From Patescibacteria group bacterium (lineage in GTDB: Bacteria; Patescibacteriota; Patescibacteriia; PEXW01), in NCBI GenBank assembly GCA_038063455.1, contig JBBTVB010000003.1, forward strand, positions 1,714 to 65,713: a stretch of 64,000 bases of DNA, written 5' to 3'. The position numbers and the translations under genes are program-made. Below, piece after piece: positions 12,959-48,098 of the stretch. The first letter of the stretch is position 1. The number at the start of each line of letters is the position of its first letter. The notes beneath the pieces are model-generated. The model was given only the letters and a program-made list of their open reading frames with translations, was not told the DNA's origin and ran no database searches.

Positions 12959-13834
12959 ATGCAAAAAATCCGCAAAGCCGTTATTCCCGCCGCAGGATTA
13001 GGCACGCGCTTCCTGCCCGCCACCAAGGCGATGCCCAAAGAAATGCTCCCCATCGTGGACAAGCCCATTATTCAGTACGTGGTAGAAGAGGCCGTGGCCA
13101 GCGGCATTGAAGATATCATCATTGTAACCAGCAGCAACAAGCGCTCGCTGGAAGACCACTTTGATTACCCATACGAACTCGAAAAAAAATTGGAAGAAGC
13201 TGGTAAACATGAACTCTTGCAGGAAATCCGTCGCATTGCCGGGCTAGCCAACTTCATTTACGTGCGCCAACGCGGGCCCTACGGCAACGCCTCCCCCGTC
13301 CTGACCGCCAAGCACATCGTGGGCGACGAACCCTTTGCCGTGCTGTGGGGCGACGAATTCATTCATGCCGAGCCACCACGACTCAAACAAATGGTGGACG
13401 TGTACAACGAATACGGAAAATCCGTGATTAGTGCGGTACGCATTCCTAACCCCCAAGATGTGAGCAAGTACGGCATTGCCGATGTCGAAACCGTGAAAGG
13501 CACGGTCCATCGGATTAAACAGATTGTCGAAAAGCCCAAGCCCGAAGAAGCACCCAGTAACCTGGCGGCGCATGGGGCGTATATCCTGACGCCAAAAATC
13601 TTCGAGCACCTCAAAGCACTTAAGCCCGGCAAAGGTGGGGAGCTGTGGCTGGTGGATGCCATTAATGCCCTGGCCAAAGCGGACGACGTGTACGCCAAGG
13701 AAATTGAAAATGGCGACTACTATGACACGGGCAACAAATTTGACTACTTGCGCGCGAACATTGAGTTTGCCTTGCAACGGGATGACCTGCGCGACAAACT
13801 GCTGGCCTACCTGCGCACCAAACTCCAAGACTAA
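12959..13834 (+). CDS. galU: UTP--glucose-1-phosphate uridylyltransferase
   Basis: KAVIPAAGLGTRFLPATKAMPKEMLPIVDKP, VLWGDEF and the overall GalU pattern. Confidence 0.95.
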   Translation: MQKIRKAVIPAAGLGTRFLPATKAMPKEMLPIVDKPIIQYVVEEAVASGIEDIIIVTSSNKRSLEDHFDYPYELEKKLEEAGKHELLQEIRRIAGLANFIYVRQRGPYGNASPVLTAKHIVGDEPFAVLWGDEFIHAEPPRLKQMVDVYNEYGKSVISAVRIPNPQDVSKYGIADVETVKGTVHRIKQIVEKPKPEEAPSNLAAHGAYILTPKIFEHLKALKPGKGGELWLVDAINALAKADDVYAKEIENGDYYDTGNKFDYLRANIEFALQRDDLRDKLLAYLRTKLQD

Positions 13835-27517: not shown

Positions 27518-28579
27518 TTATGTTCCGAGCTTCTGCTTGAAGTAGTTTACCCAGTGAATCTCGGAGGGGTTTACATGATGGCGTAAGCCTACACCCAGCG
27601 TCAGCGCGCCGCCAAGCACCAACGCTTCAATGGCTTGCGCTAAGGCTGTGCGGCCAGTGAGCCGGATCGAGATGACCTTAGCGCCATTCTTCTGGACCAC
27701 ATCCGCAGTGAGACGGAAACGTTTTTGAATGCGCGGACTGTAGAGCGCGGATTGCAACATGAGGAAGGTTGTCTGCTTAACGTTCGCTTTGGGGTTACCC
27801 AAACCTTCCATCAGGTGGTGGTTGAGTTCGGGAATGGCAAAAAATATTGCAACTGATTTCGCAGTTTCGTTAAACTGGTTGGCCATCGCATGCGCGGCGC
27901 CCACCAAGTGCTCGGCCGCAGTGACATAGACTGCGCGGCCTTGCAGTGCAGCACTCAAACCGACAATTGGACTTGTAGCTGACCGCAAGTCGGTGCGGCG
28001 GATAGTCCGCTCAGCAACTTTCAGGGCGTCATCCAAAATTGTTGGTGATATATCGAGTAGGCCCATCTTGCGGAGCATGCCCAGCAACCCAAACACCGCG
28101 TACCCTAAGCCAAGGCGCGGCTGCTTGGAGGGGTTTTCAATAGGGTTAAAGATATAGGCCGGGAGCTTATTCGTCTTTGCAATGCGTCCCAGCTGCCCAC
28201 CCGCAGCAATCACTGCCACGCGCGCACCAGATTTCTTGGCCGGCTGCCAGGCGGCAATGGTCTCTTCTGTGGTGCCAGAATAGCTAGCTAAAATAACCAG
28301 GGTCCGCTTGCCGACCCAGGCTGGCAATTGATAGTCGTTGATAATAACCAAGGGTACACGAAGTTCCTGACTGCAGGCCGCTTGAATAATGTGCGCGCCC
28401 AAAGCGCTCCCGCCCATGCCGGCCAGGAGAATCGTATCTACTTTGCCGCGCAATGCTGGGAACTTCAACGCGCGAATGTCACTAACCGCCTGGTGCCCTT
28501 GGCGCGCAAAACGCTCCACCGACCCGAACACATCTTGCGGGTCGAGCTGTTTGAGTAACGCAGGGAAGGGTGTAGGCAT
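27518..28579 (-). CDS. Bifunctional phosphoglucose/phosphomannose isomerase (SIS-domain, archaeal-type PGI/PMI)
   Basis: LLAGMGGSALGA, ILASYSGTTEET, second SIS half, C-terminal LGVGLRHHVNP. Confidence 0.75.
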   Translation of the reverse strand: MPTPFPALLKQLDPQDVFGSVERFARQGHQAVSDIRALKFPALRGKVDTILLAGMGGSALGAHIIQAACSQELRVPLVIINDYQLPAWVGKRTLVILASYSGTTEETIAAWQPAKKSGARVAVIAAGGQLGRIAKTNKLPAYIFNPIENPSKQPRLGLGYAVFGLLGMLRKMGLLDISPTILDDALKVAERTIRRTDLRSATSPIVGLSAALQGRAVYVTAAEHLVGAAHAMANQFNETAKSVAIFFAIPELNHHLMEGLGNPKANVKQTTFLMLQSALYSPRIQKRFRLTADVVQKNGAKVISIRLTGRTALAQAIEALVLGGALTLGVGLRHHVNPSEIHWVNYFKQKLGT

Positions 28580-32637: not shown

Positions 32638-33912
32638 TTATTTTTTATTTGCGTTAACCGCACGCAATGCATACAAGTACATCCCGGCAGACCACGCTTG
32701 GCGTGGCATACCCAAGGGCTTTTTCGTTTTGCCGTGGAACCATTCATTAAATTCCCAAGCTTCTTTTTTACCCAGGCGATTGGCTTTGGCTAAGGCGAGG
32801 AGCGCAGTCTTTGCATCGGCACGACGGCCGACTTTCACCAGTGCCGCAACGTATAACCCGCCCAAGTACGGCCAGTAGCCGCCGTTGTGGTACTGGTCAG
32901 GTAAATTGAGTTTATTGAGCGTGTAGTAATGCTGCCAGTCTTTCATCCCCGGCTTGCGTGCTGGCCAAGTGGCTTTGATGGCAAACGGCTGAGCAAGTTT
33001 ATGCTTCTCAATAAATGTAACGATCGTCTGGGCTTGAGCCGAAGTAGCGGCGCCGGTAATGATGGCCAGTAAATTTCCCAAGCTATCAAACCACTCACCG
33101 AAGTTAAGGAAAGTAATATAGGGCAGGAAAAAGGAATTGGCGCTCATGAACTTTGCGTCCTGGATAAACTGCTTGCGACCATGGCCCCGGATCTGCCTGC
33201 GCCGCTCCGGGCCCTTGCTGCCAAAGCTATCTTGGATTATTTGGAATACGTCGCGGCTGGGCGTGTACCAAAAGCGGTCGCGGATCATCGCCTGCAACTG
33301 CCGCGCTTGCGCTGTCCACTCCTTAGCGAGACTGGGTTTGCTGAATTTCTTCGCCAAGCCACCGGCGGTGCGGAGCGCGTGGGCATATAAAACATTGACG
33401 GTCAGGCCTTTGCCGCGGACGCCAAAAATATCTTCCCAGTCTGCAGCTTCATCCATAGTTATGAACCCGCTTCGGTCCGGCGACTGGGTTGCGTACCAGG
33501 CCAACACGCGCTGGAGGTTCGGGAAGATTTTCCGGACAAAGGCCCAGTCTTTGGTCTGCCGGCCGTAGGCGGCGGCACCGATAACAAACCACAGGCCACC
33601 GTCGGCATACGCGCGGAACGTGGCCTTGCCCGTCACCGTATCCACGTAATTCGGAATTTGGCCCAGCGGTGCCTGGAAACGGACAAGGGTGTGCAGGCTT
33701 TGGCGGAATGCGCGGCGCAGTTTGGCATCGGCAAATGGCAAAGTGCCGAGCAGCGTGATCATGCTATCCCGCGCCCACACCTTCTTATACAACGCGGAAC
33801 TGGCCGAGGCCTGGATACCGAGCGGGTGGATGCAGCGCCGAAGCACCTCGAGCGCGTGACGTTTGGCTTCGGCAAGAAATTGGTCAGCGGCAGGAAGAGT
33901 GGAATGAGACAT
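32638..33912 (-). CDS. (alpha/alpha)6 glycoside hydrolase, GDE_C / GH100 neutral-invertase-like
   Basis: Track ORF 32638-34068 overlaps the divergent GT4 by 110 nt. Start moved to ATG 33912 (MSHSTLPAADQF). VWARDSMITLLG, GQIPNYVD, DGGLWFVIGAAAY, ADWEDIFGVRGKGLTVNVLYAHAL. Confidence 0.65.
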   Translation of the reverse strand: MSHSTLPAADQFLAEAKRHALEVLRRCIHPLGIQASASSALYKKVWARDSMITLLGTLPFADAKLRRAFRQSLHTLVRFQAPLGQIPNYVDTVTGKATFRAYADGGLWFVIGAAAYGRQTKDWAFVRKIFPNLQRVLAWYATQSPDRSGFITMDEAADWEDIFGVRGKGLTVNVLYAHALRTAGGLAKKFSKPSLAKEWTAQARQLQAMIRDRFWYTPSRDVFQIIQDSFGSKGPERRRQIRGHGRKQFIQDAKFMSANSFFLPYITFLNFGEWFDSLGNLLAIITGAATSAQAQTIVTFIEKHKLAQPFAIKATWPARKPGMKDWQHYYTLNKLNLPDQYHNGGYWPYLGGLYVAALVKVGRRADAKTALLALAKANRLGKKEAWEFNEWFHGKTKKPLGMPRQAWSAGMYLYALRAVNANKK

Positions 33913-33920
33913 GTGAGTAC

Positions 33921-33928
33921 AGTATACT
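33921..33928. promoter_or_regulatory. Palindromic AGTATACT giving a TATACT -10 box on both strands
   Basis: Plus-strand TATACT 33923-33928 (ATG 33959, 30 nt downstream). Minus-strand TATACT from 33921-33926 (ATG 33912, 8 nt downstream). Confidence 0.45.
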
Positions 33929-33958
33929 ACCAGCATCTCACCTTGGGACACCAACTGT

Positions 33959-35008
33959 ATGAAGAAGCTCCGCATTGCCCAACTCGTGCCGTTTGAAGAA
34001 ACCGTGCCGCCCACCAAGTACGGCGGGACGGAACTCGTCGCCTCCAACTTGTCCGACGGCTTGGTCAAGCAAGGCTACGATGTCACGCTCTTCTCCGTGG
34101 GCGGCTCCAAAACCACGGCCAAGCTGGTCAAAGTCTTTCCTGGTCCCCTACGCGCCCATACCGGTTCGGAACTCAAAGCGCGAGAAGCTCTTAAATTTAT
34201 GGGCGTGGGCAAGGTGCTGACCGCGGTGGTGAAAGGCAAATTTGACGTCGTACACAACCACATTGGCTGGCGCGTGCTACCGTTCTTAGAAATTATCCCG
34301 GCCCCGACGGTAACCACCTTGCACGGCCCGCTCGACATTGCGTACCAGCGCATGGTGTACAAACCGTTTGCCCGCACGCCGTTTGTTTCGATCTCCAACA
34401 ACCAACGCAAGCCGCTCAAGCTCAACTATGCGGCCACGGTGTACAACGGCATCCGCGTGGACCGCTTCGACTACTTAGAAAAGAAAGATGATTACCTGGC
34501 CTTCCTCGGCCGGATGAGCCCGGAGAAGGGGCCGGTGCAGGCAATCCAGGTGGCAAAAAAAACCAAGCGCCGTTTAATTATGGCCGCCAAGGTCGACCAA
34601 GTCGACATAAAATTTTTTAACGAGAAGGTGAAGCCGCTCATCGATGGCAAGCAAATCAAATTTCTTGGCGAAGTCGGCCACGAAGGGAAATCGAAGCTGC
34701 TGGCCCATGCGGCCGGGCTGCTGGCGCTTATCCAGTGGGAAGAGCCGTTTGGCTTGTTCATGGCCGAAGCCAACGCTTGCGGCACGCCGGTTATCGCCAT
34801 GGCTCGCGGTGCTGCGCCAGAAGTCATTGCGCACAAGAAGACTGGCTACCTGGTGCATTCCACTGCGGAAGCTGCCAGCATGGTGAGTAAACTCGGCATG
34901 ATCAAACCCAAGGACTGCCGGACGCGCGCCCAAGCGCACTTCTCGGTGGAAGCCATGGTGGCGGGCTACGTGAAGGTGTACGAAAGACTCATCCGCCAGT
35001 GGCGCTGA
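33959..35008 (+). CDS. GT4 glycosyltransferase, paralogue 1 of 3
   Basis: VPPTKYGGTELV, YLAFLGRMSPEKGPVQAIQ, WEEPFGLFMAEANACGTPVIA. Confidence 0.8.
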   Translation: MKKLRIAQLVPFEETVPPTKYGGTELVASNLSDGLVKQGYDVTLFSVGGSKTTAKLVKVFPGPLRAHTGSELKAREALKFMGVGKVLTAVVKGKFDVVHNHIGWRVLPFLEIIPAPTVTTLHGPLDIAYQRMVYKPFARTPFVSISNNQRKPLKLNYAATVYNGIRVDRFDYLEKKDDYLAFLGRMSPEKGPVQAIQVAKKTKRRLIMAAKVDQVDIKFFNEKVKPLIDGKQIKFLGEVGHEGKSKLLAHAAGLLALIQWEEPFGLFMAEANACGTPVIAMARGAAPEVIAHKKTGYLVHSTAEAASMVSKLGMIKPKDCRTRAQAHFSVEAMVAGYVKVYERLIRQWR

Positions 35009-35121
35009 GTCCCGCTTAAACTCGTCATGTCACACGCGTTGCAATTATCTTGTGGGACGAAACCCCGCACCGGAGCCACACAGCAGTGTGACGACTGGTG
35101 CGCGGGTAACCACCTAAAACT

Positions 35122-36105
35122 ATGACCCGAGCGGCCTTGCTCAAACACGTCCGCTCCCTCCTAGCCAAGCGCGGACTCACGCCGGACGCTGACGTCAAAG
35201 AAATCCTCAACCACCAGCGGCGGTTTTTCCGCACGCGCTGCATCGATGCGAAAGGCAAGCAGTACACCTTTAAAGTGTACCTCCTTACCGTCCCCACCAC
35301 GCGCCACGACTTCCAGCACGAAATTGCCTTCTACCATTTTGCCGCCCAAGGCCGACTAACGCAATTTCCCCGCTGGATAGCGGGTGAACGCAATCGCGCC
35401 CATCCCTGGATTCTCTACACCTACATCCCCGGCGTACCGTTTACTACCTACCTCCGCCGCAAACGGAACCATGTGCCGCCACGGCTGCTGAACACGCTCG
35501 CGCGCGTGCTCGCGCACTACACCCACCTCCGCATTCCCGAGCCCACCCGACGCCTGCTCCACCTCCACGCCCATCGAGCCAGCGATTTTAGCAAACGTTT
35601 CACCCAGTACACGCGCGGCCGCAACCGCAAAATGATCCTGCAGCACCTGACGGAAACCGAGCTGGAGGCTGCCGCCCGGATTATTGCTTTCCACCAAACC
35701 GAGAAGCGCTTGCCACGCCAGCTGGGGCTGAGCCACGGCGACTTGAGTACGGCCAACTTGCTGGTGGATGGCGAGAGCTTTGCAGTGCTGGACTGGGAGC
35801 ACATTCAAATTGCCTCCCCCGCCTACGACATTGCCGAACTGTGGGTCAAAGAATTCAGCCGCGCGCCCTGGCGCAACAAGCTGGCGCTGCAGGTGGGCGC
35901 GCTGCAACCGCAGCCGGAACTCTTCGGCGCCCTCTTTAGTATCGAAGTCCTACTCTTCTGCCTGCGGGATATTCTTTTGCACGACCGGATCGTGCACGAA
36001 CTCAAGCATCGCCGGAGCAAAGCAATTATTCGGCGAGTGCTCAGCTACTACAGCCGCACCTTCCGCGCCGCGCTCCGCGGTTTTCCAGTTCTGCTAAAAA
36101 CCTAA
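35122..36105 (+). CDS. APH-fold (aminoglycoside phosphotransferase/choline-kinase family) small-molecule kinase
   Basis: Catalytic loop LSHGDLSTANLLVD and DWEHIQIASPAYDIAELW (HGDxxxxN ... DWE). Confidence 0.7.
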   Translation: MTRAALLKHVRSLLAKRGLTPDADVKEILNHQRRFFRTRCIDAKGKQYTFKVYLLTVPTTRHDFQHEIAFYHFAAQGRLTQFPRWIAGERNRAHPWILYTYIPGVPFTTYLRRKRNHVPPRLLNTLARVLAHYTHLRIPEPTRRLLHLHAHRASDFSKRFTQYTRGRNRKMILQHLTETELEAAARIIAFHQTEKRLPRQLGLSHGDLSTANLLVDGESFAVLDWEHIQIASPAYDIAELWVKEFSRAPWRNKLALQVGALQPQPELFGALFSIEVLLFCLRDILLHDRIVHELKHRRSKAIIRRVLSYYSRTFRAALRGFPVLLKT

Positions 36106-36108
36106 CCT

Positions 36109-37161
36109 ATGAAAAGACTCCGCATTGCCCTGGTTGCGCCGCTGGCCGAGCGCGTCCCGCCCCGCAAGTACGGTGGCACCGAACTGGTCATTGGCAACTT
36201 GGCCAACGGTCTAGTAGCGCGCGGCCACAAGGTAACGCTGCTGGCCCGCTCGGATTCCAAAACCAAAGCCAAGCTCGTCTCCTTCTACCATCCCGACCCG
36301 CGGGCCCGCTCCCGCTACGCTTCTCGTGGCTACATGGTGCCCAACTACTGGCAGACCTTGGAGTTGGGTTGGGCTTTTGAACGGGCTAGGCAATTTGACG
36401 TGATGCACTTTCACATTGGCTCGACCTTCTTCCCCTACACCCGGCTAGTACAAACGCCGTGCGTACTCACGCTGCACGGCCGCTTGAATACCACAGAAGC
36501 AAAAAAGGTGCACACGGCGTACAAAGAGGTGCCCCTGGTTTCCATCTCGAACAACCAGCGCACGCCCATCCCGAAACTCAACTTCATTCGGACAGTGTAC
36601 AACGGCATTGATATGGCGGCGCATCGCATGGGTACGGGCAAGGGGAATTACCTCGCTTTCCTGGGCCGCATGAGCCCGGAGAAAGGGCCGGTGCAGGCTA
36701 TCCAGGCCGCCAAGCGCGCTGGGATGAAACTCGTGATGGCTGCCAAGGTAGATACCGTTGACGCTGGCTACTTTACCAAAAAGGTGAAGCCGTTCATCGA
36801 TGGCAAGCAAATTCGATTTATCGGCGAAGTTGACCACGCGGGCAAAGTAAAACTCCTCCAGGGTGCCGTTGGTCTGCTTGCGCTCATCCAGTGGGAAGAG
36901 CCCTTCGGCTTGTTCATGACCGAGGCCATGGCCAGCGGCACACCGGTTATTGCCACCCATCGCGGCTCGGTGCCAGAAATTGTCGCGGATGGCAAAACCG
37001 GCTTTGTGGTGGGTGACGTGACCGACGCCGTTCGGGCCATTAAAAGTCTGCACACCATCAACCGCCAAGCCTGCCGTGCGCGCGTGGAAAAATACTTTTC
37101 CATCGAGGCAATGGTCAACGGGTACGAAGCTGTGTACGCTAAGCTTACGCACAAAAGATGA
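36109..37161 (+). CDS. GT4 glycosyltransferase, paralogue 2 of 3
   Basis: VPPRKYGGTELV, YLAFLGRMSPEKGPVQAIQ, WEEPFGLFMTEAMASGTPVIA. Confidence 0.8.
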   Translation: MKRLRIALVAPLAERVPPRKYGGTELVIGNLANGLVARGHKVTLLARSDSKTKAKLVSFYHPDPRARSRYASRGYMVPNYWQTLELGWAFERARQFDVMHFHIGSTFFPYTRLVQTPCVLTLHGRLNTTEAKKVHTAYKEVPLVSISNNQRTPIPKLNFIRTVYNGIDMAAHRMGTGKGNYLAFLGRMSPEKGPVQAIQAAKRAGMKLVMAAKVDTVDAGYFTKKVKPFIDGKQIRFIGEVDHAGKVKLLQGAVGLLALIQWEEPFGLFMTEAMASGTPVIATHRGSVPEIVADGKTGFVVGDVTDAVRAIKSLHTINRQACRARVEKYFSIEAMVNGYEAVYAKLTHKR

Positions 37162-38186
37162 AACCCAAAATCGCCATTCTCGCCTCCAACCTCTACCCCA
37201 TCCCGCCGCAGCGTACGTCGGCGGCCGAACTTATTGTGTCAGAAATTACCGAGGGGTTAGTAAGGCGCGGTTTCCCGGTGACGCTCTACGCCGCAGGGGA
37301 CACCAAAACTCGCGCACGCTTGGTAAGCGTGACAAAACGCGCATCCATTCGCGATCCCAAAATCGGCCAGCCAAACCACAAAGCCTACGAATTTATGCTG
37401 GCTAGCCGAGCCTACAAAGATGCCCAAACCTGGGGCGCAAAAATTATACTCTCGCATATTCCCATGGTGAGCGCACACTTTGCCGCGTTTGCAAAGTTCC
37501 CCACCGTTGCCCTGCTGCACAGCCCGCCCACGCCGACGGATGCCGCAGTCATGGCCAGCGCGCCGAACCAAAAGTACATCTCCATCTCTAACAACCAACG
37601 CAAAACCGCAGCCGGTTCAAAGTTTGTTACTACCATCTACCACGGCGTCAACACGAAACAGCTAAAATTCCAAGCGCAACCAGGCAACTACCTAGCCTTC
37701 CTGGGGCGCATCCGCGAGTACAAAGGGGTAAAGGAAGCAATTGCGGTTTCCGGCGCAACGAAAATCCCGCTGCGCATTGCCGGCCCCATCGGCGACCCGG
37801 CGTACTTTGCAAAATTCGTGAAGCCAGCGCTGTCAAAAACCATTCGCTACGTCGGTGAAATTACCCATAGCCAAAAGTCTGCATTCCTCGGCGGCGCGCT
37901 GGCCACACTCTTCCCCATTGGTTGGGAAGAGCCGTTTGGTTTGGTTATCCCCGAATCCCTGGCCTGCGGCACGCCGGTGATTGCCTTCAAGCGCGGCTCG
38001 GTGCCTGAACTGCTGCGGGACAAAAAGACGGGCTACATTGTAAAAACCGTCCCACAGATGATTACCGCGGTACAAAAAATTGAACACATCAAACGTTCTG
38101 CCTGCCGCGCGGAAGCCGTGCGCCGCTTCTCGCTCGACCGGATGGTGGATGACTACGCAACGCTACTGACCAAACTCGCGAGGTAA
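37158..38186 (+). CDS. GT4 glycosyltransferase, paralogue 3 of 3 (more divergent)
   Basis: YLAFLGRIREYKG, WEEPFGLVIPESLACGTPVIA. ATGA overlap with paralogue 2. Confidence 0.8.
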   Translation: MKPKIAILASNLYPIPPQRTSAAELIVSEITEGLVRRGFPVTLYAAGDTKTRARLVSVTKRASIRDPKIGQPNHKAYEFMLASRAYKDAQTWGAKIILSHIPMVSAHFAAFAKFPTVALLHSPPTPTDAAVMASAPNQKYISISNNQRKTAAGSKFVTTIYHGVNTKQLKFQAQPGNYLAFLGRIREYKGVKEAIAVSGATKIPLRIAGPIGDPAYFAKFVKPALSKTIRYVGEITHSQKSAFLGGALATLFPIGWEEPFGLVIPESLACGTPVIAFKRGSVPELLRDKKTGYIVKTVPQMITAVQKIEHIKRSACRAEAVRRFSLDRMVDDYATLLTKLAR

Positions 38187-38188
38187 CT

Positions 38189-39103
38189 ATGCAAGGCTCC
38201 GAACTCCGCATTGACCCCATCCACGACCGCGCGGTTATTGTGGCGCCCAAACGCGGCGCTCGTCCGCACGACATTCCAGAAGAAACCCTCAGTGTGGTCC
38301 CGCGCGATTGCCCATTTTGCCTAGAGGCACTCAAGAAGAAGGGCATTGTCCATACCAGCGGCAAAGGCGCCACTGCCATTCGGGTTATTAAGAATGGGTT
38401 CCCTGCCGTGTCGCTGGATAACCCCAAAGCCCACGGCTACCAAGAAGTGCTTATCGAGACGCCCGCCCACAGCGTGGAGCTGGCCGAGCTCCCGGTACAA
38501 AAAATTGACCACTTGCTGCACGTCTACCAGCACCGCACCCGAGCCATAGCCAAGAAACGCGGCATCGAGTACATTCTCATTTTTAAGAACCACGGCGGCA
38601 AAGCCGGGGCCAGCCTGGTGCACGCCCACTCGCAAATTTTTGCAACCGGGTTTGTGCCGCCGCATATCATTCAAAAGCTCACCAATGTCCGCGCGTACAG
38701 CATTGCAAAGGGCCACTGCTACTACTGCGACACGCTGGCCAAAGAACAGCGCGGCCCGCGGCGCATTCTGGCCAACAAACATGTCGTGGCCTTTGCCCCC
38801 TACGTCTCGGCCTACCCATACGAGGCGTGGATCTTCCCGCGTCGCCACGTCGACAACCTGACGCGCCTTTCGCATGCAGAACGACGCGCCTTTGCCGTGG
38901 CCATGCGCACCATCTTGGGCAAGCTCAATGGCATTAACGTGCCGTACAACTACTACCTGCACCAAACCCTTACGGACAAAGACGAACACTTCTACCTGCG
39001 CATTGCCCCCCGCCAATCAACCTGGGGTGGGCTGGAAGTCGGCTCGCGGCTAATTATCAACCAAGTCGCGCCCGAGGATGCGGCAAAGTTTTATCGGAAG
39101 TAA
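38189..39103 (+). CDS. GalT-type hexose-1-phosphate nucleotidyltransferase (HIT superfamily)
   Basis: CPFC Zn motif, FKNHGGKAGASLVHAHSQIFA (HxHxQ). A second half-domain follows. Confidence 0.75.
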   Translation: MQGSELRIDPIHDRAVIVAPKRGARPHDIPEETLSVVPRDCPFCLEALKKKGIVHTSGKGATAIRVIKNGFPAVSLDNPKAHGYQEVLIETPAHSVELAELPVQKIDHLLHVYQHRTRAIAKKRGIEYILIFKNHGGKAGASLVHAHSQIFATGFVPPHIIQKLTNVRAYSIAKGHCYYCDTLAKEQRGPRRILANKHVVAFAPYVSAYPYEAWIFPRRHVDNLTRLSHAERRAFAVAMRTILGKLNGINVPYNYYLHQTLTDKDEHFYLRIAPRQSTWGGLEVGSRLIINQVAPEDAAKFYRK

Positions 39104-39119
39104 CTGCTACCTAAGTGAA

Positions 39120-40184
39120 CTATATGAGGATACGTCCCTGCTTACCTGTCGGGCGCGCTCTTTGAATCATAAACTCAACGTTCTCGTTCATATTAGTCGG
39201 GTCGATTCTAATGTCTGTATGATGGTTTTGCCATACTCGAAAAATCTCATCGGCAAAAGCTTGGCCAATGGTGTCTACTCCCGAAAAGTCCAACTCAACA
39301 ACTTTAAAATTCTCCAAATTCATGGTTACTCGTTTTGCCTCAGATCGAGAAGGTAAGTCGCGGCCAAATTGAAAGAGCTTTACAGTCACGCGCGTCTTGT
39401 CAAACAAATATTCATCCTCTCCGTTCCCCGTAAAAGCATTAAATATACCTCTAAGATCTCGCTGGGATGTGAGATGAATACTAAAACTTACGCGCGTACC
39501 CCTAAGCGATTTTCGATCAGAAATGAATATGTCAGGCAATAAGTTATTCACCGTCAACCGTTTCTCATAACTATCAATAACGAACACATCGCCCATTTTT
39601 GAAGTAAAAAATACTCCTTCGCCTGTGTGCTGTTTTGGGTCCGTAGTCGCTTTACCTTTTAAAATTTCCTGAATGGCAGCAAGTGTCCCCGGTAAACGAA
39701 ATTTGTCACGAACATTATTAAAAATACCGATACCAAAATCACGAACGACAAAAGTTATGGCTGTATCTGTTTTGCGGCAATCAATCTCAATACGCCCCGA
39801 TTGTGAATGATCAATGGCGTTATTAACCATTTCGGTAAAACCATGACGAATAATTTTATGAATATTTTCTTTCGCATCCAAAAAGATGCCCGTTTCTTGC
39901 TCGATTCTTTTAAATACTGTGTCTTCATCAAGATTAGCATTTTTTAGACGAAAAAATATATGACGAATTGCCCGTTTTACGTTACGAACGGCTGTCGTGT
40001 CTGAGGCTAAAACGTACCTAGCTTGATTGGACTTCCCAATGAGAAGTACCGTTCCCTCTTCGCGGAGCTCTTGTAAAAGAAGGTGTGCGTAGTTCCTACT
40101 GACGCTTAAGTCATCACCAATTTGGCGGGTGGTAACCGACCCCTTCTTATGTAGTACAGATAAAATATGGTCTTTTGATTGCAT
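39120..40184 (-). CDS. wHTH - GHKL ATPase (HATPase_c) - STAS-like (DUF4325) protein, low-GC
   Basis: N-terminal winged-helix-like ILSVLHKKGSVTTRQIGDDLSVSRNYAHLLLQEL. N-box MVNNAIDHS, G1 VRDFGIGI, GEGVFF. C-terminal VELDFSGVDTIGQAFADEIFRVW. Visibly AT-richer than both neighbours. Confidence 0.6.
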   Translation of the reverse strand: MQSKDHILSVLHKKGSVTTRQIGDDLSVSRNYAHLLLQELREEGTVLLIGKSNQARYVLASDTTAVRNVKRAIRHIFFRLKNANLDEDTVFKRIEQETGIFLDAKENIHKIIRHGFTEMVNNAIDHSQSGRIEIDCRKTDTAITFVVRDFGIGIFNNVRDKFRLPGTLAAIQEILKGKATTDPKQHTGEGVFFTSKMGDVFVIDSYEKRLTVNNLLPDIFISDRKSLRGTRVSFSIHLTSQRDLRGIFNAFTGNGEDEYLFDKTRVTVKLFQFGRDLPSRSEAKRVTMNLENFKVVELDFSGVDTIGQAFADEIFRVWQNHHTDIRIDPTNMNENVEFMIQRARPTGKQGRILI

Positions 40185-40205
40185 AATAATTTACTTTACA
40201 ACTCT

Positions 40206-40234
40206 ATTATAGAGTAAAGTATAAAAGTTGTCAA
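40206..40234 (-). promoter_or_regulatory. Consensus promoter TTGACA-17-TATAAT with overlapping inverted repeat
   Basis: Minus strand: TTGACA from 40229-40234, TATAAT from 40206-40211. Imperfect inverted repeat TACTTTAC-AA-CTCTAT (40192-40207) / ATAGAG-TAAAGTA (40209-40221) spans the -10 box. Confidence 0.7.
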
Positions 40235-40295
40235 CTAGTCATACTATATATTCACCTTCGGGTTAAATACATACAAATAACTGAATACTTGTGAG

Positions 40296-40304
40296 TGCTA
40301 TCAT
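40296..40304 (+). promoter_or_regulatory. Extended -10 TGcTATCAT, 6 nt before ATG 40311 (leaderless-type)
   Basis: TG 40296-40297, TATCAT 40299-40304, GTACCT, ATG 40311. Confidence 0.5.
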
Positions 40305-40310
40305 GTACCT

Positions 40311-42173
40311 ATGCCCCAGTTGGAACCCAACCTCTGGATCGAAGGCGGCTATTACATCGACTTCGACCAGCTCGACCAGTTTCGCATCCTCGGCCCCAAC
40401 AACCACTTGTACTGTGGGTTTATTGACGCGCCGCGGCACCGGCTGGCCATTGATAAACTGGAAACCACGCCGGAGCAGAAGCTGGTGGTCACGGGCCGGT
40501 TCCTGAAGTCCACCTTCAACCTCTACAACCCGGTCATGGGCGATATGCGCACGATGCGCGGCTTAGTAGTGGAAGAGCAGACGAACAAGCTGGTTACCTT
40601 TTTAGAACTCCGCAAGCGCGAGACCAGCCAGTCCGTACCCATGTGGATCCACCGCAGCCAAGGCCGGGACGGCAAGGCGCTGCTTTTCCGGCGCTCGTAC
40701 GGCGACAAGTGGTACGGCACCACCTTCCACTTCCCTACCTGGGTCAACATCACGGCCATCCAGCGGCCGTTCGGCGGGTTCAAGCTGGAGGCGCGCGGCA
40801 AGAAGCACATTCCCTTCACTATTACCGCCGACACCAACGACCTCACCGAGCGCACGTACCGCAGCTCGGTAATGCCGGACGAAGCTATTGAGTGGAAAAC
40901 CTTTGGTAAAGAAGCGGCGGTCATAAAAAAGTTCTGGCAGCGGTCAAAGATTGAAGCCGACCACCTGATTACCTGGGGCAAAACCTCGGGCGACCGGTTT
41001 GGCACAGTCTTCCCGCGGGACTGGATGGAATCCGTACTCCTCGGCGCGGGCGACATCCCCTCCGAGACGATCGATGCCATGATTATCCAGTGCTTGGCAA
41101 ACGTGGATGGCCGTGGCCGCATGTGGCACGAGGACGTCGTGGGCGAGTACCGCTACCGCCACCAACTCTCTGGGCGGGATTTGTTCGACCGCAAAATGAT
41201 TGATATTGAGCCGCTGGTGATTCTGGCCTTGCGCTACACCTCGGCAAACTTTTGGACCAACACCGACGCGCTGACCAAGCTGCGCCGGATGGCAAAATAC
41301 GTAGTGGCCAACGCCCACAAGAAGCACTGGATTGCCTTCAAGCGCAAACCCAAATCTCATCAAACTGCCGATGAGCAATACTACCTGGTGGGCAACTGGC
41401 GGGACAGCACCTGGGCCTTTAAAAAAGTGCACCCCCACCTAGCGCCGTTTGACGTGAATGCTGTGCTTTACCCCGAAGCACTACGCGAGCTCCAGCTGCT
41501 GAGTAGTAAATTGCAATTGACCAATGCCGCCGCGCTGGCGACGCTCCGGAAACGTTGGGACAAGCAGAGCGAGCACTTTGCAATAACCAACCCGGATACA
41601 TTGCCTGCCTACGCCCTGGCCGTGTACGGCATGAACAGCAACGTGTACAGCGCGGGCCGCAAGGTAAAGTTCCAACAATATAAAGTGAACCACCTGGACG
41701 AGTGCTATCGCTACGCGCTCAGCGAAGGCACAGAAACCGAACTCGCCAGCTACTGCAAGCGCCTGGCCGACAAAAAGTACTTCTGGACCGCCAGCGGCCC
41801 TTTGCTGGTCGCGGCCAACAACAGCATGGGCTACACCTCGCAGGAGTACCATGGCCTGGTTATCTGGACCAAGCAGGTGGCCTTTGCGCTACTGGGCCTA
41901 ACGCGCCATTTGGAACAAGCCAAAAGCCGCACGTGGAGCCTGAGCACGCAAAAACTCTTGCGTGCCACGGCGCTCGACATCTGCCGCCGAATGGTTAGCA
42001 CGTTTGCCAAACTCAATGCGATTCCGGAGCTGCACTTTGACGACCGCAACACCCCACGGCTGTTCACCGACCAGCAAGCCACGGGCGAGCACATGAGCAA
42101 GGTACAGCTGTGGTCAGCAATCGGCGCGCGTCGGATTTTCCGCGAGTACTACAAGCTGCTGAAGCAAAAATAG
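40311..42173 (+). CDS. Large uncharacterised protein, C-terminal part GDE_C-like (alpha/alpha)6 glycosidase fold
   Basis: 620 aa. GTVFPRDWMESVLLG, GRGRMWHEDVVGEY and MIDIEPLVILALRY resemble the FGRD / G-IPHE / VDATPL pattern of amylo-alpha-1,6-glucosidase-type domains. The N-terminal ~200 aa are unrecognised. Confidence 0.4.
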   Translation: MPQLEPNLWIEGGYYIDFDQLDQFRILGPNNHLYCGFIDAPRHRLAIDKLETTPEQKLVVTGRFLKSTFNLYNPVMGDMRTMRGLVVEEQTNKLVTFLELRKRETSQSVPMWIHRSQGRDGKALLFRRSYGDKWYGTTFHFPTWVNITAIQRPFGGFKLEARGKKHIPFTITADTNDLTERTYRSSVMPDEAIEWKTFGKEAAVIKKFWQRSKIEADHLITWGKTSGDRFGTVFPRDWMESVLLGAGDIPSETIDAMIIQCLANVDGRGRMWHEDVVGEYRYRHQLSGRDLFDRKMIDIEPLVILALRYTSANFWTNTDALTKLRRMAKYVVANAHKKHWIAFKRKPKSHQTADEQYYLVGNWRDSTWAFKKVHPHLAPFDVNAVLYPEALRELQLLSSKLQLTNAAALATLRKRWDKQSEHFAITNPDTLPAYALAVYGMNSNVYSAGRKVKFQQYKVNHLDECYRYALSEGTETELASYCKRLADKKYFWTASGPLLVAANNSMGYTSQEYHGLVIWTKQVAFALLGLTRHLEQAKSRTWSLSTQKLLRATALDICRRMVSTFAKLNAIPELHFDDRNTPRLFTDQQATGEHMSKVQLWSAIGARRIFREYYKLLKQK

Positions 42174-46727: not shown

Positions 46728-48098
46728 TCACATGTAGAGCCGCTGCTTGATGAGGGTGAGGTCTTGCTGGAGTTTAAGATCTTCTTTAAGTTGCCTCGTC
46801 ATTTTTTCGATTGCGTGCATAGCGGTGGAGTGGTCCCGGCCACCGAGCTCTTCGCCGATGGTTGGGAACGACGCTTGAATCTCTTCCCGCATGAGGTACA
46901 TAACTATTTGCCGCGGTTTTACCAGCTCTTGGCGGCGGCTCTGGCCCAGCACCTCAGAGACTTTTACGTCGTAGTACTGGCACACCGCCCCAATAATTTG
47001 CTTCGGCGTGACCGCGTGTTGCCGTTTGGTGTGCGTGGCTTGTGTAATGGAAGAGAGAATGTCTTTAATAGAGTCTACGGTGGGCGCGGTGTGGCTTAGG
47101 TTGTGTACCGCGACAATCCGGTTGAGCGCGCCTTCCAGCTCCCGGACGCTATTCTGGATGACGTTGGCAATGTATACCAGCGCGTCGTCACTCATGTGGA
47201 GTTTACGCTCGCTGCATTTGGCCCGCAGGATAGCAATGCGCGTTTCCAGGTCGGGTTCCTGCACGTCGGCGATCATCCCCCACTCAAAACGAGTAAGCAG
47301 CCGAGCTTCCAGCGCCGCAATGGCCTTGGGCGGCCGATCGGACGACAAGATGATTTGCTTATTTTCTTGGTGGAGCGTGTTGAAGGTGTGGAAGAACTCT
47401 TCTTGCGTTCCTTCTTTGCCAGTGAGGAACTGCACGTCGTCCACGAGCAGCACGTCGACCGACCGCCAGCGTTCGCGGAATTTTGCCATTGTCCCTTTGT
47501 AAATAGCCTGTACGAATTCGTTGGTGAATTGCTCGCAACTCACGTACAGGACACGAGCTTTTGGGCTGTGCGCCAGAATGCCGTGGCCAATGGCCTGCAT
47601 CAGGTGGGTCTTGCCCAAGCCCGCACCGCCGTAGATGAAGAGTGGATTGTAGATGTCGCCCGGCTTCTCGGCGCAAGCTTTGGCCGCGGCCTGGGCCAGC
47701 TCGTTGCCCTTACCAACGATAAAGGTGCCAAAGGTGTAGCGCGGGTTGAGGCCGCCCTTGCCCCCCATGGCCTTCAGCAAAGGGGCGGCTTCCTCGACCA
47801 CCTCGGGTGGGGCACTGGTTACCGCATCCACCGAGGCTTTTGGGCTTTCTACTCGGTAGGCAACGCTTGCTATCTCTTTCTCGGTTAGGTGTTGCAGGGC
47901 GTTGAGGATGTGAGAGTGGTATTTGGTCTCCAGCCAGGACTTTACGAAGTCCGTGGGCACGCCAATAACCGCCTGGTCGCCCTCAATGGTGCTGATGAAG
48001 GTGTTTTTGAACCAGGTCGTGAAGTTGGCTTTGCTCAAATGCAGCTCTAATTCGCCTAGTGTGGCTTCCCAGAGCTTATCATTTGGTAATTTCGGCAT
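46728..48098 (-). CDS. dnaA: Chromosomal replication initiator DnaA
   Basis: YTFGTFIVGKGNELA, NPLFIYGGAGLGKTHL, LLVDDVQFL, C-terminal DNA-binding domain HSTAMHAIEK. Confidence 0.97.
   Translation of the reverse strand: MPKLPNDKLWEATLGELELHLSKANFTTWFKNTFISTIEGDQAVIGVPTDFVKSWLETKYHSHILNALQHLTEKEIASVAYRVESPKASVDAVTSAPPEVVEEAAPLLKAMGGKGGLNPRYTFGTFIVGKGNELAQAAAKACAEKPGDIYNPLFIYGGAGLGKTHLMQAIGHGILAHSPKARVLYVSCEQFTNEFVQAIYKGTMAKFRERWRSVDVLLVDDVQFLTGKEGTQEEFFHTFNTLHQENKQIILSSDRPPKAIAALEARLLTRFEWGMIADVQEPDLETRIAILRAKCSERKLHMSDDALVYIANVIQNSVRELEGALNRIVAVHNLSHTAPTVDSIKDILSSITQATHTKRQHAVTPKQIIGAVCQYYDVKVSEVLGQSRRQELVKPRQIVMYLMREEIQASFPTIGEELGGRDHSTAMHAIEKMTRQLKEDLKLQQDLTLIKQRLYM

Follow-up and report, generated by a model that had tools for sequence, protein, structure and literature searches.

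Three tandem genes of glycosyltransferase family 4 (GT4), a kinase of the APH fold and a homologue of galactose-1-phosphate uridylyltransferase (GalT) share one operon in a Patescibacteria group bacterium, a member of the Candidate Phyla Radiation (CPR). What do these enzymes make together, and what do the kinase and the GalT-like protein contribute? The stretch of DNA that we analysed, referred to throughout as the window, comprises 64,000 nucleotides (nt) of contig JBBTVB010000003.1 (assembly GCA_038063455.1, positions 1,714 to 65,713). An initial annotation had proposed that the kinase and the GalT-like protein convert a salvaged sugar into a nucleotide sugar for the three GT4 enzymes. Drawing on homologies, conserved residues, operon structure, synteny and gene fusions, all of which are seen directly, we consider it reasonably probable that the genes between ~30.2 and 42.2 kb form a cytoplasmic cluster in which sucrose and sucrose-primed α-glucosides are metabolised; from the same observations we infer which substrates are used, the linkage formed, which way the GalT-like reaction runs and what the kinase phosphorylates.

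The GT4 paralogues resemble a cyanobacterial glucosylsucrose synthase

In order along the plus strand, we refer to the three GT4 genes as GT4a, GT4b and GT4c (Table 1). Each product matches the Pfam domain Glycos_transf_1 at ~1e-21. Against solved structures, GT4b aligns over its full length with PDB 7fg9/8x3q (E = 2.6e-97, 329 bits), the next GT4 structure reaching 95 bits. PDB 7fg9 is TeGSS, the glucosylsucrose synthase (GSS) encoded by tll1591 of Thermosynechococcus elongatus, which adjoins the sucrose-phosphate synthase gene tll1590 (PMC9909042). TeGSS uses UDP-glucose and sucrose to produce α-1,2-glucosyl-sucrose oligomers (PMC9909042). Over the full length of TeGSS, whose sequence was taken from an alignment printed in the literature, identity is 51% for GT4b (E = 3e-113), 45% for GT4a (E = 5e-101) and 37% for GT4c (E = 3e-77). 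The donor-binding residues R179, K184, W254 and E256 are retained in all three paralogues; Y18, which together with R179, K184 and E256 serves catalysis and the binding of the UDP diphosphate in TeGSS, is retained in GT4a and GT4b and is a threonine in GT4c. A weak likeness to the glgA_Coryne/GlgM family was also detected (NCBIfam TIGR02149, 7e-18; PDB 6tvp, 1e-9, 41 bits). In a rough neighbour-joining tree without bootstraps, TeGSS falls inside the CPR radiation, beside the clade formed by paralogues a and b.

By sequence, GT4a, GT4b and GT4c are glucosylsucrose synthase homologues, with that activity predicted, and the three probably differ in acceptor or chain length. The initial annotation was right that they are three tandem paralogues; it left their glycan unnamed, and their identification as GSS homologues supplies a candidate.

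Probable sucrose genes lie upstream of the operon

The SPS-like GT4 gene that precedes the operon encodes a protein with a full-length phmmer match to PDB 6kih (TeSPS, E = 1.1e-83), at ~43% identity by eye. Mapped on TeSPS, the protein retains H158, E331, P332, E339, R178, R249 and R253, with lysine in place of R105. In terms of the roles in catalysis and sugar-phosphate binding given for TeSPS residues (PMC7264703), the catalytic histidine and glutamate and three of the four phosphate-binding arginines are present. We use the name sucrose-phosphate synthase (SPS) provisionally, as a family-level assignment. The adjacent HAD phosphatase, of the sucrose-6F-phosphate phosphohydrolase type, matches Pfam S6PP (5.5e-20) and gives weak NCBIfam matches to the SPP-subfamily; its gene is kept divergently upstream in four related loci (L001, L004, L010 and L011, in the numbering of the comparison set described below).

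Between the phosphatase gene and GT4a lies an open reading frame (ORF) for a six-hairpin hydrolase. Its product matches Pfam Glyco_hydro_100 (PF12899, the alkaline/neutral invertase family; 2.7e-24, 86.1 bits against a cut-off of 23.6) and also GDE_C (PF06202, 8e-23), and its best PDB matches are the cyanobacterial alkaline invertases 5z73 (5e-13) and 5goo (2.6e-12), along with 6ttj, the E-values ranging to 6e-12. As called mechanically, the ORF spans 32638-34068 (-) from a TTG start and overlaps the start of GT4a by 110 nt. An ATG at 33936 or 33912 is the likely start, leaving a divergent gap of ~22-46 nt to GT4a; the orthologue in L001 has 429 amino acids (aa). Farther upstream, a phosphoglucose/phosphomannose isomerase (Pfam bact-PGI_C, 2.3e-25; NF006425, 1.3e-64, under cut-off) occupies the same position in L001, L007, L008 and other loci. 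The GalU protein, encoded ~20 kb upstream of the cluster, exceeds the TIGR01099 cut-off (347.2 against 326.8 bits) and, on this family assignment, is the canonical UDP-glucose source. The genes around galU encode glycosyltransferases and solute-binding proteins. No transmembrane segment or signal peptide was predicted in any protein of the cluster.

A chromosomal slot holds alternative glucan clusters

The gene order and ORF coordinates that had been given for the operon were all borne out by the ORF list, and its junctions could be read directly in the sequence. The kinase gene ends in a TAA stop followed, after 3 nt, by the ATG of GT4b; GT4b and GT4c overlap in an ATGA; and the TAA stop of GT4c is separated from the ATG of the GalT-like gene by CT, the 2-nt gap noted previously. 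The cluster lies a few kb from dnaN and dnaA and adjoins the PBP1A gene.

Loci for comparison came from homologue lookups with the kinase, the GalT-like protein and the 620-aa protein encoded at the end of the cluster (GH63-like, see below), and from a scan of one genome per species with a GalT-like alignment. The scan returned 595 relatives, from which 80 loci were kept and annotated by BLAST and hidden Markov model (HMM) searches; arrangements were counted only where the upstream flank reached 5.5 kb or more. In these CPR genomes the slot between ruvC and PBP1A-dnaN-dnaA holds one of three arrangements. In type A (9 loci), GSS homologues occur with the kinase (8 loci), the GalT-like gene and the GH63-like gene (9 loci, a count taken from the locus listing, the automated count having missed L053). 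Type B (34 loci) comprises an ADP-glucose-type glgA, a GH57 gene, a GH15-like gene, one or more kinases (30 loci, eight of them weak HMM matches picked by hand), often a PHP phosphoesterase, the GalT-like gene and then a ROK gene; the GH63-like gene was found in none of these 34. Both GT5 genes of one such locus, L008, exceed the TIGR02095 cut-off for ADP-glucose-type glgA. The remaining 14 loci carry the GalT-like gene without glucan genes, and neither the kinase nor the GH63-like gene was found in them. The kinase is thus present in 38 of 43 glucan-type loci versus 0 of 14 loci without a glucan synthase.

In most of the 80 loci the glucan operon ends with the GalT-like gene; in 34 loci a GT5 gene precedes it, usually as its nearest annotated neighbour among the 80 loci listed. 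Besides the nine type A loci, the GH63-like gene accompanies GSS homologues in three further loci found through the GH63-like protein itself (L089, L090 and L091), which contain kinases and have no GalT-like gene within 9 kb. The gene after the GH63-like one often encodes a ROK kinase. The five tightly packed genes thus co-occur across genomes, with the kinase in eight of the nine GSS-type loci that have enough flank, and because the arrangement is kept in related genomes down to ~50% protein identity, it does not reflect chance.

Many loci with typical CPR synteny carry the labels 'uncultured Gammaproteobacteria', Pirellulales, Vicinamibacterales, Omnitrophota or Thermoplasmata, probably through mis-binning or because the labels are generic.

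A small and distinct kinase family

The kinase matches PF01636 (APH, 2.5e-20) and has intact catalytic motifs, with K51, E67, H205-G-D207-x4-N212 and D224 invariant. An AlphaFold2 (AF2) model, with a mean predicted local distance difference test (pLDDT) of 84.8, shows a normal APH fold. Against PDB sequences, searches with the single sequence and with a profile gave marginal matches only, to hygromycin and APH(3') kinases (E = 0.002-0.3). The structural neighbours found by Foldseek were APH(3'), corramycin, amicoumacin, APH(2'') and choline kinases and one fructosamine-3-kinase, at template-modelling (TM) scores of 0.45-0.6. The sugar kinases NahK, Mak and MtnK were absent from both the PDB sequence matches and the Foldseek top 50. 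The likeness to these enzymes that had been suggested is accordingly not a specific one, the Foldseek neighbours being generic APH-type small-molecule kinases. Among 1.84 billion representative proteins, the kinase profile matched only 302 at E <= 1e-3 and one at E <= 1e-30. Judged from these searches, the kinase represents a small separate family, nearly all of whose members seen here come from CPR genomes.

Gene fusions connect this family to glucan enzymes. The family HMM was built from domain envelopes only, excluding the rest of the fused ORFs. Kinases fused to GH57 occur in two different metagenome-assembled genomes, at L013:6749-8992 (748 aa) and L057:6754-8982 (743 aa); the two proteins are 66% identical without gaps and keep the HGDxxxxN motif. 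At L089:2997-5462, an 821-aa protein joins a glycogen-synthase-like part (Glyco_transf_5 and Glycos_transf_1) to a C-terminal kinase (E = 8e-39 with the family HMM), again with HGDxxxxN intact, and is flanked by two GSS homologues, a GH57 4-α-glucanotransferase-like protein, a GH63-like protein and a ROK kinase. The kinase is doubled in four loci. In L019, L023, L027 and L048, ORFs of ~680-710 aa upstream of the GT5 gene encode two tandem APH domains. The most likely substrate of the kinase is a sugar that the glucan enzymes release or use, and C1 of glucose is our leading guess for the site.

Several single-domain kinases of the L008 type lack the canonical HGDxxxxN (L008 itself has HGN, for example). 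In many glycogen-type loci the kinase is followed by a PHP-domain phosphoesterase of ~295 aa that resembles the nucleoside-bisphosphate phosphatase/RNase RNM, below cut-offs.

The GalT-like protein is a class I enzyme

The GalT-like protein matches GalP_UDP_transf (2.3e-14) and NF008724 (8e-34), and its score of 98.7 with TIGR00209 (galT_1) is just below the cut-off of 102.1. Its best PDB match is 1z84, At5g18200 (E = 4.9e-44, 154 bits), followed by 6k5z (103 bits), with E. coli GalT at 81 bits. All its solved matches are class I enzymes or At5g18200, and the protein is itself class I. The catalytic sequence H145-x-H147-x-Q149, which has the HxHxQ motif of a GalT-type enzyme, and the zinc ligands C41, C44 and H94 show no variation across the 25 aligned homologues. 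At5g18200 is described as an Arabidopsis GalT homologue acting as an ADP-glucose phosphorylase. The two proteins share a full-length match, the HxHxQ motif and the Cys/His zinc site, and the ADP-glucose-type glycogen synthases found beside the GalT-like gene in sister loci fit an ADP-glucose substrate. At5g18200 differs in length (351 versus 304 aa), and the GalT-like protein could equally be a UDP-hexose:hexose-1-phosphate transferase. Most likely, the GalT-like protein interconverts glucose-1-phosphate and an NDP-glucose (NDP, nucleoside diphosphate) in the manner of an ADP-glucose phosphorylase, by way of a predicted nucleotidyl-His147.

The initial annotation had likened the kinase and the GalT-like protein to the bifidobacterial galacto-N-biose/lacto-N-biose (GNB/LNB) pathway. 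The analogy holds for the logic and fails for the family. LnpC, the partner of NahK, is described as a class II GalT: it has 515 aa, includes an auxiliary domain (IPR000766) and shows <15% identity to class I, unlike the shorter class I protein here. We reject membership of the GNB/LNB pathway on this difference. Both systems group a glycoside-cleaving enzyme with an APH-fold kinase and a GalT-type enzyme; the CPR cluster lacks a GH112 phosphorylase and GalE and contains synthases, and its kinase is not specifically NahK-like.

A GH63-like protein accompanies the GSS homologues

The 620-aa protein encoded at the end of the cluster gave no match to Pfam, NCBIfam or PDB sequences, whether the single sequence or a profile was searched against PDB, yet it has more than 249 CPR homologues. 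An AF2 model built from 31 homologues (pLDDT 88.8) comprises an N-terminal β-sandwich and an (α/α)6 barrel. The top Foldseek matches are 5mhf (α-glucosidase I of the endoplasmic reticulum, ER), 5ca3 and 3w7w, YgjK being among them (E = 3e-11 to 1e-10, TM ~0.5); GH94 and GH65 phosphorylases come next, and with these as the next matches a phosphorolytic mechanism is possible for the modelled fold. MGH1-like_GH matched weakly in 7 of 31 family members. The family alignment shows invariant acidic residues, for example D365, D463/E464 and E573. The protein had been called GDE_C-like: the six-hairpin fold stands, and the PF06202 match does not, GDE_C being found instead in the GH100-like ORF at 32638-34068 (-), outside the span then described.

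GH63 enzymes cleave α-1,2-glucosides. The likeness to GH63 α-glucosidases (ER glucosidase I, E. coli YgjK and the bacterial glucosyl-/mannosylglycerate hydrolases) is one of predicted fold, in the top Foldseek matches; the 620-aa protein differs from them in having no sequence match to a GH63 model or structure and a TM of only ~0.5. With its fold as modelled, the GH63-like protein is likely a candidate α-1,2-glucosidase that trims the cluster product.

A proposed pathway and its difficulties

Taken together, these assignments suggest a route that could run entirely in the cytoplasm. The TeSPS-like GT4 would join the glucose of an NDP-glucose to fructose-6-phosphate, suppliable by the neighbouring isomerase, giving sucrose-6-phosphate, from which the S6PP-type HAD phosphatase would release sucrose. 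The GSS-like GT4s would then extend sucrose, or the growing oligosaccharide, with α-glucose from NDP-glucose; by analogy with TeGSS the products would be α-1,2-glucosyl-sucroses ('sucroglucans'). The GH63-like protein may trim α-glucosyl units, and the GH100-like enzyme may split sucrose. The kinase and the GalT-like protein would act as a sugar-phosphate/nucleotide-sugar module, one that in sister CPR lineages is joined to an ADP-glucose glycogen-synthase cluster in the same slot. A bolder version, which we think unlikely, is a pyrophosphorylase-independent route: the kinase would make glucose-1-phosphate from glucose freed by the GH63-like, GH15-like or GH57 proteins, and the GalT-like protein (DUF4931) would run phosphorolysis in reverse (glucose-1-phosphate + NDP -> NDP-glucose + inorganic phosphate), recycling the NDP of the glucosyltransferases.

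The closest known system is the SPS-GSS pair of cyanobacteria (T. elongatus tll1590/tll1591; Nostoc alr1000), which likewise has SPS-like and GSS-like GT4s in one locus (43% and 37-51% identity), the same catalytic and nucleotide-binding residues and soluble cytoplasmic proteins (PMC9909042, PMC7264703). Unlike the cyanobacteria, which have one GSS, the CPR locus has three ancient paralogues in which W10 of TeGSS is lost, and its host is non-photosynthetic. The CPR operon also adds the APH-fold kinase, the GalT-like protein and the GH63-like protein, none of which is mentioned for cyanobacteria in PMC9909042 or PMC7264703. With the GlgE pathway of actinobacteria (TreS-Pep2, GlgM) the cluster shares an APH-fold kinase fused to or clustered with α-glucan enzymes, as in the GH57-kinase fusions of sister loci; it differs in lacking GlgE (GH13_3) and TreS and in a kinase with no detectable sequence similarity to Mak, and GT4b is far nearer TeGSS than GlgM (329 versus 41 bits).

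Several observations weigh against a sucrose-based cluster as proposed here. The residue W10, which lies on the acceptor side of TeGSS and stacks on the fructose of sucrose (PMC9909042), is replaced in every paralogue, by glutamate in GT4a, alanine in GT4b and leucine in GT4c; because it is lost in all three, their acceptor may not be sucrose. Sucrose binding by TeGSS is described as loose (PMC9909042), and given this looseness the weight of the W10 loss is uncertain. The evidence for TeGSS comes from the work of one laboratory and is based on thin-layer chromatography. The SPS-like GT4 scores higher with NCBIfam MshA than with sucr_P_syn_N, both under cut-off. The SPS, SPP and GH100 genes are confined to the window's close lineage, and because the more distant GSS-type loci lack them, the sucrose link is limited to that lineage. 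As to the module formed by the kinase and the GalT-like protein, the ADP-glucose phosphorylase reaction favours breakdown, by ~10 kJ/mol in our own estimate from standard hydrolysis energies, and with GalU in the window the GalT-like protein is not needed for UDP-glucose. The kinase is the fastest-evolving protein of the cluster, at 21-30% identity where the GalT-like protein has 50-54% and the GH63-like protein 46-48%, a pace of divergence that one would not expect if its substrate were a single unchanging small sugar. The kinase and the GalT-like protein also each occur without the other.

Alternative roles for the kinase and the GT4 enzymes

The scheme of the initial annotation, in which an anomeric kinase makes a sugar-1-phosphate that the GalT-like protein turns into an NDP-sugar for the GT4s, like NahK and LnpC, seems to us possible but doubtful. 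In its favour, all five genes lie in one operon with 0-3-nt junctions; the kinase gene is immediately 5′ of the GalT-like gene in L046 and L051, both genes are common to GSS-type and glycogen-type clusters, no phosphoglucomutase was seen within the cluster, and the GH57-kinase fusions parallel the TreS-maltokinase fusions of actinobacteria. C1 is also the site of phosphorylation in each of the known APH-fold sugar kinases, MtnK, Mak and NahK. Yet the kinase has no specific similarity to NahK, Mak or MtnK, and LnpC, as class II, is unrelated in sequence to the class I GalT-like protein. The very fast divergence of the kinase speaks against the scheme as well, as do the presence of GalU in the window and the distribution of the two genes, the GalT-like gene occurring without the kinase in 14 loci, and L089, L090 and L091 having the kinase but no GalT-like gene inside 9 kb. 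An obligatory kinase-to-GalT salvage pair is not borne out, given this independent occurrence and a true GalU in the window. In another reading, which we hold to be equally doubtful, the kinase does not feed the GalT-like protein and instead acts on the glucan or oligosaccharide itself or on its primer, phosphorylating the product or an acceptor, or controls the synthases and hydrolases by phosphorylation. Its presence follows glucan synthases and not the GalT-like gene (38/43 versus 0/14 loci); it is fused to a glucan synthase (L089) and to GH57 (L013, L057) with HGDxxxxN intact; fast divergence would be expected if its substrate differs between α-1,2 and α-1,4 clusters; and the PHP phosphoesterase that often follows it in glycogen-type loci would complete a kinase-phosphatase pair. 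The fusions fit substrate channelling of a free sugar equally, however, no phospho-glucan- or carbohydrate-binding domain was detected, and the Foldseek neighbours are small-molecule kinases.

A kinase among GT4 genes is also the pattern of waa (lipopolysaccharide core) operons. Together with the PBP1A gene that adjoins the cluster and the GT2 genes elsewhere in the window, this could point to a cell-surface or lipid-linked glycan built by the GT4s, with the kinase decorating a chain sugar like WaaP/WaaY. We judge this very unlikely: the cluster proteins have no transmembrane helix or signal peptide, the operon lacks a polyprenyl-phosphate transferase, flippase and polymerase, TeGSS, with which the GT4s share 37-51% identity, is a soluble enzyme that glucosylates sucrose, the neighbours of the GT4s are sucrose enzymes, and the syntenic alternative elsewhere is a glycogen cluster.

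A near-identical tract encodes a catalytic loop

Paralogues a and b share a tract, 34514-34550 versus 36670-36706, in which 35 of 37 nt are the same, as had been noted, the whole genes being 60% identical in nucleotide and 51% in protein sequence. The peptide that the tract encodes, LGRMSPEKGPVQAIQ, is the loop bearing the donor-binding residues R179 and K184 of TeGSS, and in four genomes neither paralogue a nor paralogue b departs from it. Between genomes, orthologue identity is ~80% for a-a, ~70% for b-b and ~70% for c-c; a-b identity is 51-55% in every genome. In a simple column shuffle the tract is significant (p = 0.0085); conditional on amino-acid conservation it is not (p = 0.38). Synonymous codon identity at conserved residues is already 0.58 over the whole a/b pair, a sign of codon bias. 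Purifying selection on the catalytic loop and codon bias suffice to explain the tract.

Of the two causes suggested for the tract, strong constraint is enough, and gene conversion is not needed once amino-acid conservation is taken into account. A recent conversion between paralogues a and b would have explained the excess over the rest of the genes and the shuffle result, and at synonymous sites the a-b tract is nearer than the between-genome a-a comparison (window, L003). We nevertheless regard it as improbable in the extreme, since the peptide is invariant in four genomes and carries donor-binding residues, p rises to 0.38 with conservation held, orthologues cluster by paralogue in every genome, and codon bias alone gives the background of synonymous identity.

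Layout of the locus and other features of the window

Table 1. Genes and other features of the cluster and its surroundings, in window coordinates.
Feature	Coordinates	Strand	Remarks
GalU, UTP-glucose-1-phosphate uridylyltransferase	12959..13834	+	TIGR01099
Bifunctional phosphoglucose/phosphomannose isomerase	27518..28579	-	Pfam bact-PGI_C; left border of conserved slot
SPS-like GT4, 425 aa	30221..31498	+	TeSPS (tll1590) homologue
S6PP-type HAD-IIB phosphatase, 365 aa	31499..32596	-	Pfam S6PP
GH100-like six-hairpin hydrolase	32638..33936	-	Pfam Glyco_hydro_100; likely ATG start
GT4 paralogue a (GT4a)	33959..35008	+	GSS homologue
Structured spacer GT4a/kinase	35009..35121	+	113 nt, two hairpins
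APH-fold kinase, 327 aa	35122..36105	+	PF01636
GT4 paralogue b (GT4b)	36109..37161	+	of the three, nearest TeGSS
GT4 paralogue c (GT4c)	37158..38186	+	divergent GSS homologue
GalT-like, class I, HIT family, 'DUF4931', 304 aa	38189..39103	+	nucleotidyltransferase or phosphorylase
Low-GC islet, single gene 39120-40184 (-)	39104..40310	-	GC 0.396
GH63-like protein, 620 aa	40311..42173	+	predicted fold

The islet between the GalT-like and GH63-like genes had been recognised by its low GC content, and its value in Table 1 compares with 0.58 in the flanking genes. Its single gene encodes a FaeA-like helix-turn-helix (HTH), a HATPase_c and a DUF4325 (STAS-like) domain and has a perfect promoter, TTGACA-17-TATAAT, at 40234->40206 on the minus strand. 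In L003, L006 and L007 nothing occupies this site, and in L001 (299 aa) and L004 (640 aa) it contains unrelated, unannotated ORFs; being empty in some loci and differently occupied in others, it has the look of an insertion hot spot. No PADLOC match was obtained for the islet gene, nor for the L001 and L004 ORFs at the same site.

The spacer between GT4a and the kinase gene folds with a minimum free energy of -42.6 kcal/mol (z = -3.96), and none of 200 shuffles folds as well. It is kept in L010, with, as read by eye, a U-A to C-G exchange that alters both arms of the first stem; L001 and L004 lack the spacer, and no Rfam family matches it. An Rfam match to AsdA, an antisense RNA of dnaA mRNA, at 47553-47633 (+), with 57.7 bits against a gathering threshold of 52, lies inside and antisense to dnaA, and may only reflect conservation of the dnaA coding sequence.

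Significance

A literature search for GSS outside cyanobacteria, and for links of CPR bacteria to glycogen or GalT, found nothing relevant; in the literature searched, cyanobacteria are so far the only described source of glucosyl-sucroses and of their synthase. What is new here is a version of the known cyanobacterial SPS-GSS pair in an unexpected lineage, together with three uncharacterised partner families. These families, all of small soluble proteins, are the ~300-member kinase family, the DUF4931 GalT-like proteins linked to ADP-glucose glycogen synthases, and the GH63-like proteins, which lack a Pfam model. In ~80 genomes, a conserved slot near the origin holds an α-1,2 (GSS-type) or an α-1,4 (glycogen-type) cluster, and the same kinase family and the GalT-like protein tend to be common to both. 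Were the pyrophosphorylase-independent route to operate, a storage or compatible glucan would cost one ATP per glycosidic bond, and in this lineage that glucan would be α-1,2-glucosyl-sucrose. If our reading of the cluster is correct, sucrose-based solutes or storage sugars would extend to a non-photosynthetic, ultra-small bacterium of the Candidate Phyla Radiation.

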